DNA of 64,000 bases, from the NCBI RefSeq assembly GCF_013122565.1, contig NZ_CP053258.1. The stretch is one strand, 5' to 3'. The notes beneath the pieces were generated by a model, which saw nothing but the letters and a program-made list of their open reading frames with translations, was not told the origin of the DNA and ran no database searches. The translations under genes and the position numbers were made by a program. The DNA comes from Escherichia coli. Its GTDB lineage: Bacteria > Pseudomonadota > Gammaproteobacteria > Enterobacterales > Enterobacteriaceae. This document shows, in pieces, positions 49,527-51,433 of the stretch; position 1 is the first letter of the stretch, and each line of letters begins with the position of its first letter.

Positions 49527-49790
49527 TCAGGCGCGGATTTGTTGTGATGTGGTTGTGCTCTGGCAGATGGCAACGTGTGCGACGTCCACCAGTTTATTTA
49601 ACTGACTAAACAGTAAGTCGACCGACCGTGGGCTGGCAACGGTCAATTCGATATTTATATTTTGTGCATCGCTGGCGGCGGCCATATTCATTGAGCAGAC
49701 GTGGAAACCACGATGACGCACCACGCGTAAAACACGTTCTAAGGTTTCTGGATTGAAGCGAGCCGATACATTGACCTGATGTTGCATCAT
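49527..49790 (-). CDS. ilvM: Acetolactate synthase II small subunit IlvM (87 aa)
   Basis: [51 protein letters not shown]. Confidence 0.95.
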
Positions 49791-51433
49791 GATAATTTCT
49801 CCAACATTTCTGAATTACTGGCACCAGGCGGCACCAGCGGCCAGACGTTCTCAAGTTCGTCGATTGAGACATGAAGCAGGTATGGCCCATCACTGTTCAG
49901 CATGGTGTCGAGTGCCGCTTCAACCTGGTCTTTACGGGTGATGTGTTGGCCAGGGATGCCGAAGGCGCTGGCTAACTTGAGGAAATCGGGGTTATCGGTA
50001 AGGGTGGTTTCGCTGTATCGCTCCTGGAAAAACAGTTGCTGCCATTGTCGAACCATCCCTAACCGTTGGTTATCGAGTAAGACGATTTTCAACGGTAACT
50101 GCTTGCGTTTTACGGTGCCCAGCTCTTGCACATTCATCATGAAAGAGCCGTCACCGGAGATACAGACGACGGTATCGTTCGGTCGCGCGACTTGTGCGCC
50201 AACCGCCGCTGGTAAACCAAAACCCATGGTGCCTAAGCCGCTGGAGGTGATGAAATTTTCCGGGCGAGTGTGGGCGATGTGCTGCGCAGCCCACATCTGG
50301 TGCTGCCCCACATCTGTGGTCACAACGCAATCCGCAGGTTTACGATCCGACAGTTGTTTTAACAACAACGGCGCGTAGATAGCGTCACCGGGATGGTCGT
50401 AACGCCAGGAATGTTCATCACGCAGCTGCGCGCAGTGTTGCTGCCAGTCATTGATATTTAACGGCTGCTGTAATGCTGGTAACAGAGCATTTAAATCACC
50501 TTGTAATGCCACATGTGCCTGACGCAGCTTGTTCATTTCTGCCGGGTCGATATCCATATGGATAACACTGGCGTGTGGTGCGAAGGTGTTCAATTTGCCG
50601 GTCACCCGGTCATCAAAACGTGCACCCACGGCGATCAGCAAGTCGCACTCCTGCACCGCGAAGTTCGCCGCTTTGGTGCCATGCATTCCCAGCATTCCCA
50701 GATAGTACGAATAATCTGCTTCAACTGCGCCCAGCCCTTTCAGCGTGCAGGTGGCAGGCATTTTTGTGGTAGCGAGAAATTCTCGTAAAGCAGGAACTGC
50801 CTGCGCCATACCCACGCCACCGCCAACGTACAGCATCGGTTTTTGCGCTTTTGCCAGCATCTGGCGCGCTTGCTCAACTTCGGCATGTGGAAAAGTCACT
50901 ACGTTTTCAACGGTGGTGAACCACGGTTCCAGGTCACCGCTGGCTAGCTGGATATCTTTTGGGATATCGACCAGAACCGGACCAGGACGACCTGAGCTGG
51001 CAACGTCGAATGCTTCAGCCATAATGCGCGGCAACTCTTCCAGCGACTGCACCAGAAAGCTGTGCTTGGTACAGGCTAACGACAATCCCAGGACATCCAC
51101 TTCCTGAAATGCGTCAGTGCCGATAAACGGTGCGGACACTTGACCGGTGATGGCAACAACAGGGATAGAATCTAACAGTGCGTCCGCAAGCCCGGTTATC
51201 AGGTTGGTTGCGCCCGGACCAGACGTGGCGATACATACGCCAGTTTTGCCGGTAGCACGGGCATAACCGATAGCCGCCATTGCCGCACCCTGCTCATGTC
51301 GGCACAGCAAGTGCTCCACGCCGCCGTCATACAATGCATCGTAAACCGGCATAATTGCGCCGCCCGGATAACCGAAAACGGTGTTCACACCCTGTGCCCG
51401 CAACGCATGTACCACCCACTGTGCGCCATTCAT
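49787..51433 (-). CDS. ilvG: Acetolactate synthase II large subunit IlvG, intact (548 aa)
   Basis: Uninterrupted 548-aa [80 protein letters not shown]; 4-bp overlap with ilvM. Confidence 0.95.

Follow-up and report, generated by a model that had tools for sequence, protein, structure and literature searches.

An intact ilvG gene has been the textbook default for Escherichia coli since the early 1980s. The gene encodes the catalytic subunit of acetohydroxyacid synthase (AHAS) II, which is the valine-insensitive isozyme of the species (PMC8605374). AHAS I (IlvB/IlvN; 6LPI) and AHAS III (IlvI/IlvH) are paralogous isozymes that have the ThDP/FAD family and the three-domain architecture in common with AHAS II but that, unlike it, are inhibited by valine (PMC8605374 and established knowledge). 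In MG1655, a frameshift in ilvG introduces a premature UGA (PMC8605374), and this K-12 frameshift is polar on the downstream genes (PMC8605374, referring to Lawther 1981, Parekh & Hatfield 1997). K-12 revertants lose one base of that TGA, either T (982delT) or G (983delG), and grow at 1 mg/ml valine (PMC8605374). In strains W, B and Crooks, IlvG is intact (PMC3032704).

The window analysed here is a stretch of 64,000 nucleotides of E. coli DNA (RefSeq assembly GCF_013122565.1, contig NZ_CP053258.1). Its ilv locus was compared with these described systems, and the following features were located:

48578..49507, minus strand: ilvE, branched-chain amino-acid aminotransferase, 309 aa (MTTKKADY...); protein identical to K-12; matching loci are annotated as ilvE here
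49527..49790, minus strand: ilvM, the small (regulatory) subunit of AHAS II, 87 aa; matches NF008362 with 133.9 bits (cut-off 68); protein identical to K-12
49787..51433, minus strand: ilvG, catalytic subunit of acetolactate (acetohydroxyacid) synthase II, gene intact, 548 aa; from the ORF list, retranslation and NCBIfam NF006524
50456..50457, minus strand: the two bases missing from K-12 (ORF nucleotides 977-978), from the alignment to the K-12-type locus L001; exact placement uncertain by a base or two inside an AATAT repeat
51436..51486, minus strand: ilvX, 16-aa small ORF; annotated at matching positions in loci L001 and L002 and identical to K-12
about 51517..51553, minus strand: ilvGMEDA attenuator terminator hairpin, GACCCCCGCACCGAAAGGUCCGGGGG then U8; from the RNA fold
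51573..51671, minus strand: ilvL, leader peptide of 32 aa with many Ile, Val and Leu residues (MTALLRVISLVVISVVVIIIPPCGAALGRGKA); matches NF007744 with 81.9 bits (cut-off 59); identical to K-12

The list of open reading frames for 49000-52500 contains a single open frame at 49787..51433 on the minus strand, with an ATG start and 548 codons plus the stop. When retranslated separately, this frame measures 1647 nt, is divisible by three and has its terminal stop as the sole stop. Both results bear out the initial annotation, which had described a continuous 548-aa ilvG ORF at 49787-51433 and had seen no internal stop or frameshift in it; none appeared on retranslation. Its coordinates, length and overlap with ilvM were correct, and the strand, which it had not given, is the minus strand. 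A gene on the opposite strand at the same coordinates was considered and rejected: the antisense ORFs there are short (at most 158 aa) and the minus-strand gene explains the sequence fully.

The protein scores 1072.1 bits against the NCBIfam equivalog NF006524, 'acetolactate synthase 2 catalytic subunit' (cut-off 738), and the match covers residues 1-547 of 548. Against the NCBIfam models of the large subunit of AHAS III it reaches 490-540 bits, below their cut-offs of about 1000, and the protein is therefore not IlvI. Its nearest solved structures are AHAS catalytic subunits, that of E. coli AHAS I (6LPI, E = 2e-161, with the IlvB alignment spanning residues 2-544) being followed by plant and yeast AHAS. 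The ThDP motif is present from GDG at 427-429 through D454-N455, and the protein keeps E47 in the RHEQG segment as well as W464. By established knowledge, E47 is the catalytic glutamate and W464 sets the second-substrate specificity of AHAS II. The positions of the ThDP motif, E47 and W464 are invariant across the Escherichia/Shigella IlvG panel. On these sequence comparisons, the identity of IlvG as the AHAS II catalytic subunit is not in doubt. The 90%-identity cluster to which IlvG is assigned also contains 1041-aa Bacteroides CusA/CzcA efflux proteins, its 'representative' included, which are unrelated to IlvG. Their presence most likely reflects an error of the database or of its indexing, and the cluster size of 10,238 should therefore not be relied on.

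The surroundings of ilvG correspond to those of annotated E. coli loci, with ilvL, ilvX, ilvM and ilvE in the same order and at the same spacing. Directly upstream, the stop of ilvX is followed by 2 nt and then by the ilvG ATG. At the other end, the ilvG stop and the ilvM start share 49787-49790 (ATGA), which is the 4-bp overlap that had been claimed for this gene pair. Between the promoter-proximal leader and the ilvG start, the attenuator included, the DNA is nucleotide-identical to that of K-12. The attenuator was not picked up by a simple terminator scan, its stem having an internal mismatch, and was recovered by folding the segment. The fold of 51505-51580 on the minus strand has an energy of -29 kcal/mol (z = -4.07), and none of 200 shuffled sequences folds as well. 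The segment 51453-51742 on the minus strand, which contains the attenuator, is matched with 157 bits by RF02744, an Rfam family titled 'Soft rot Enterobacteriaceae Rev39 5'UTR'. RF02744 appears to be the ilv leader under a different name, the match being to the ilvL leader/attenuator region of ilvGMEDA.

We aligned 49787-51433 to K-12 ilvG, as the initial annotation had proposed. The K-12 (MG1655-type) pseudogene has the same locus and flanks as the window, and the same IlvL, IlvX, IlvM, IlvE, leader and attenuator. Global alignment with the K-12-type NZ_CP062250.1, whose ilvG is annotated as 'frameshifted', shows one 2-bp gap after ilvG ORF nucleotide 976. At the gap site the window reads TTAAATATCAATGAC and K-12 reads TTAA--ATCAATGAC; in longer context, these are CCGTTAAATATCAATGAC and CCGTTAA--ATCAATGAC, respectively. 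The absence of the 2 bp leads K-12 ilvG to a TGA at codon 328. In the window, the frame runs open past this TGA because the bases at 50456..50457 are present. The window ilvG thus does not carry the deletion after nucleotide 976 that characterizes the K-12 pseudogene allele, and its junction is the non-K-12 62-mer. Consistently, the K-12-type ilvG matches found by megablast span 1645 bases, against 1647 for the query. Beyond the gap, the two genes differ by 37 further nucleotide substitutions. When the window is compared with a frame-repaired K-12 gene, 31 of these fall in codons whose amino acid is unchanged and 6 in codons whose amino acid differs. This split indicates purifying selection on a diverged gene and does not fit a K-12 derivative.

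In order to determine how common each form is, we searched 5,426 complete RefSeq E. coli genomes by megablast and found ilvG in 5,425 of them. The window ilvG is 95-99% identical at the DNA level to the wild-type E. coli allele, and 97.7-99.1% identical to the annotated ilvG of 5,423 complete genomes. The frequencies of the two forms rest on the junction site only, and the junction counts are lower bounds, since megablast needs a 28-base exact word and about 440-620 genomes with nearby SNPs went unmatched. The exact K-12 junction 60-mer (at least 99% identity) occurs in 340 of the 4,808 matched genomes, and those among the matches listed are laboratory derivatives (ER1709, GB2005, MG1655 and TG1). 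A 2-base insertion relative to K-12 appears in the junction alignments of at least 4,468 of the 4,808, and 1,415 complete genomes have an exact copy of the window's own 62-mer junction. In the reciprocal junction search, TG1 and strain 2A gave 60-base spans. Wild-type E. coli ilvG (B, W, Crooks, O157:H7 and others) resembles the window gene in its length of 548 aa, its ATGA overlap, its operon order and its junction TTAAATATCAATGAC.

The E. albertii type-strain assembly and Escherichia sp. MOD1-EC7003 likewise have this junction, an ilvG ORF of 548 codons and the ATGA overlap. This makes the intact form the ancestral state, from which the K-12 form derives. The intact gene is the norm in E. 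coli, and finding it in the window is already known biology. In essence, the frameshift is a trait of K-12 laboratory lineages. It had been called a hallmark of K-12, which is true of most K-12 laboratory derivatives but not of all: the K-12 descendant NCM3722 has a 62-base intact-type junction (NZ_CP011495.1, 529046-529107). Some K-12 laboratory lineages thus lack the frameshift.

We are highly confident that the window ilvG is an ordinary, ancestral and functional allele in a non-K-12 E. coli, its activity being a prediction. The initial annotation had offered two sources, a non-K-12 E. coli or an ilvG+ revertant, and our data retain the former, on account of the 37 differences and the regional identity of at most 98.0%, and discard the latter. 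A K-12 derivative in which a secondary mutation had restored the ilvG frame (an ilvG+ or 'ilvO' valine-resistant revertant) would, like the window, have its frame open exactly at the K-12 break, and K-12 revertants do arise readily under selection (PMC8605374). However, the revertants described in that work are 1-bp deletions at the TGA that would give 547 aa and not 548, whereas the window junction is identical to the wild-type one, that of E. albertii included. A revertant would also have to account for the 37 further substitutions that separate these 1.6 kb from K-12 and for a flanking 60 kb that is not >99.9% identical to MG1655. Over 18.9 kb, no complete E. coli genome, those of K-12 among them, comes closer than 98.0%, and the window has accessory genes that K-12-type genomes keep only as fragments. 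The extra substitutions, the wild-type junction and the low regional identity together rule out a K-12 revertant for all practical purposes.

The open frame could in principle also be an assembly or sequencing artefact, in which a homopolymer or short-repeat miscall at AATAT hides a real frameshift; indel errors are indeed plausible at a short A/T repeat such as this one. Against this, three independent contigs encode exactly this 548-aa protein, and the same junction 62-mer is exact in the 1,415 genomes mentioned above, which makes such an error extremely improbable.

The source of the window was further considered. Its core genes at 36000-54900 (18.9 kb) are at most 98.0% identical to any of the 5,426 complete RefSeq E. 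coli genomes, and for its accessory regions the best identity to complete E. coli genomes is just 96.4-97.7%. The closest ilvG in complete genomes is that of PapM-32-1, from a Gambian baboon (99.1%). The exact IlvG protein is recorded as QJU26221.1 / WP_171460084.1 and is found on three contigs only. The nearest other assembly found, GCA_052983875.1 (L003), differs from the window at 44 of 7,647 bases. Import of the allele from another Escherichia species was rejected: over about 9.9 kb, its identity is 93.0% with E. albertii and 94.2% with Escherichia sp. MOD1-EC7003, against 98% with the best E. coli match. A 27-mer with two private SNPs matched none of the representative genomes that stand for 100,044 species, a result that speaks against import from a named species. 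From these identities, the source looks like a thinly sampled lineage that falls with E. coli within the genus and may be a cryptic clade or a rare phylogroup.

The window allele differs from other wild-type E. coli alleles in that its ilvG is at most 99.1% identical to any complete RefSeq genome at the DNA level and in that three derived amino-acid substitutions, E178V, P242S and M486K, are private to its lineage. In the 9 Escherichia/Shigella IlvG compared, positions 178, 242 and 486 are otherwise always E, P and M, as they are in E. albertii and MOD1-EC7003. P242S lies four residues ahead of the conserved LGMLGMHG segment. Of the 10 nucleotide changes on the private branch, 3 affect the protein sequence. 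Among AHAS isozymes with solved structures, the three columns vary: position 178 lies in an indel-prone loop, position 242 has P as its counterpart in IlvB but E in the plant enzyme, and the counterparts of position 486 are Q and L. Because these columns vary between isozymes, no functional effect of the three substitutions is expected, and a loss of function through them seems unlikely from the alignments.

An intact ORF may nevertheless encode an enzyme impaired or altered by E178V, P242S and M486K, which would amount to a cryptic loss of function or to changed regulation. The constancy of the three positions in the nine Escherichia/Shigella IlvG and in the two other Escherichia species points in this direction, as does the 3/10 share of amino-acid changes on the private branch. 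We consider such an impairment improbable, given the variation of the same columns among the solved isozymes and the untouched catalytic and cofactor motifs. Moreover, three substitutions are too few for showing relaxed selection, and L003, a second independent assembly, has the same allele at a distance of one nucleotide, which fits a maintained gene. In a related reading, the window would come from a poorly sampled and relatively deep lineage on the E. coli side, in which E178V, P242S and M486K are fixed and could alter the kinetics, the regulation or the sulfonylurea sensitivity of AHAS II; we see only a slight chance of this.

The gene probably works in the textbook manner. Transcription would proceed along the minus strand, with ilvG as the first large gene of ilvL-ilvX-ilvG-ilvM-ilvE-ilvD-ilvA, under an ilvL attenuator that would sense Ile, Val and Leu. 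A ribosome stalled on the Ile/Val/Leu-rich leader would relieve attenuation, and translation of ilvM would be coupled to that of ilvG through the ATGA overlap. IlvG (548 aa; dependent on ThDP, FAD and Mg2+) would then assemble with IlvM into acetohydroxyacid synthase II. As this enzyme would lack feedback inhibition by valine, valine would not starve the cell of isoleucine. Uninterrupted translation of ilvG would also spare ilvEDA polarity of the kind caused by the K-12 frameshift. AHAS II activity, valine resistance and the absence of polarity are thus predictions drawn from established knowledge. For the window enzyme, we infer valine-insensitive activity from PMC8605374 and from an IlvM identical to that of K-12. 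The source strain is predicted to grow on minimal medium with valine.

The window holds three further differences, which the initial annotation had regarded as strain-level accessory variation: an insert between yifL and cyaY, an ORF between hemY and glmZ, and yifN. This view is supported, each of them being present in 693 to 3,983 of the 5,426 genomes. Between lptM/yifL and cyaY lie two tandem overlapping genes on the plus strand, 4533-6041 and 6038-7348 (502 and 436 aa), both with weak matches to DKNYY-family Pfam models. The pair is complete in 1,394 of the 5,426 complete genomes. Some genomes have a DUF3304 gene as well at this site, and K-12-type genomes keep a fragment annotated as DKNYY. 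Between hemY and glmZ, a 199-aa ORF at 14845-15444 on the plus strand, annotated 'hypothetical protein', is without a Pfam match and is present in 693 of the 5,426 genomes. Its 3' end converges on that of the GlmZ sRNA gene (glmZ, 15443-15649, minus strand), with a 2-nt overlap. At the yifN position between rep and ppiC, an ORF of 163 aa (41588-42079, plus strand) encodes a PemK/MazF-like protein annotated as a type II toxin, and this region is present in 3,983 of the 5,426 genomes.

Beyond annotation, the intact ilvG has little import: it tells that the window does not come from K-12. It can be used as a quick marker of strain background when the other differences of the window are read.
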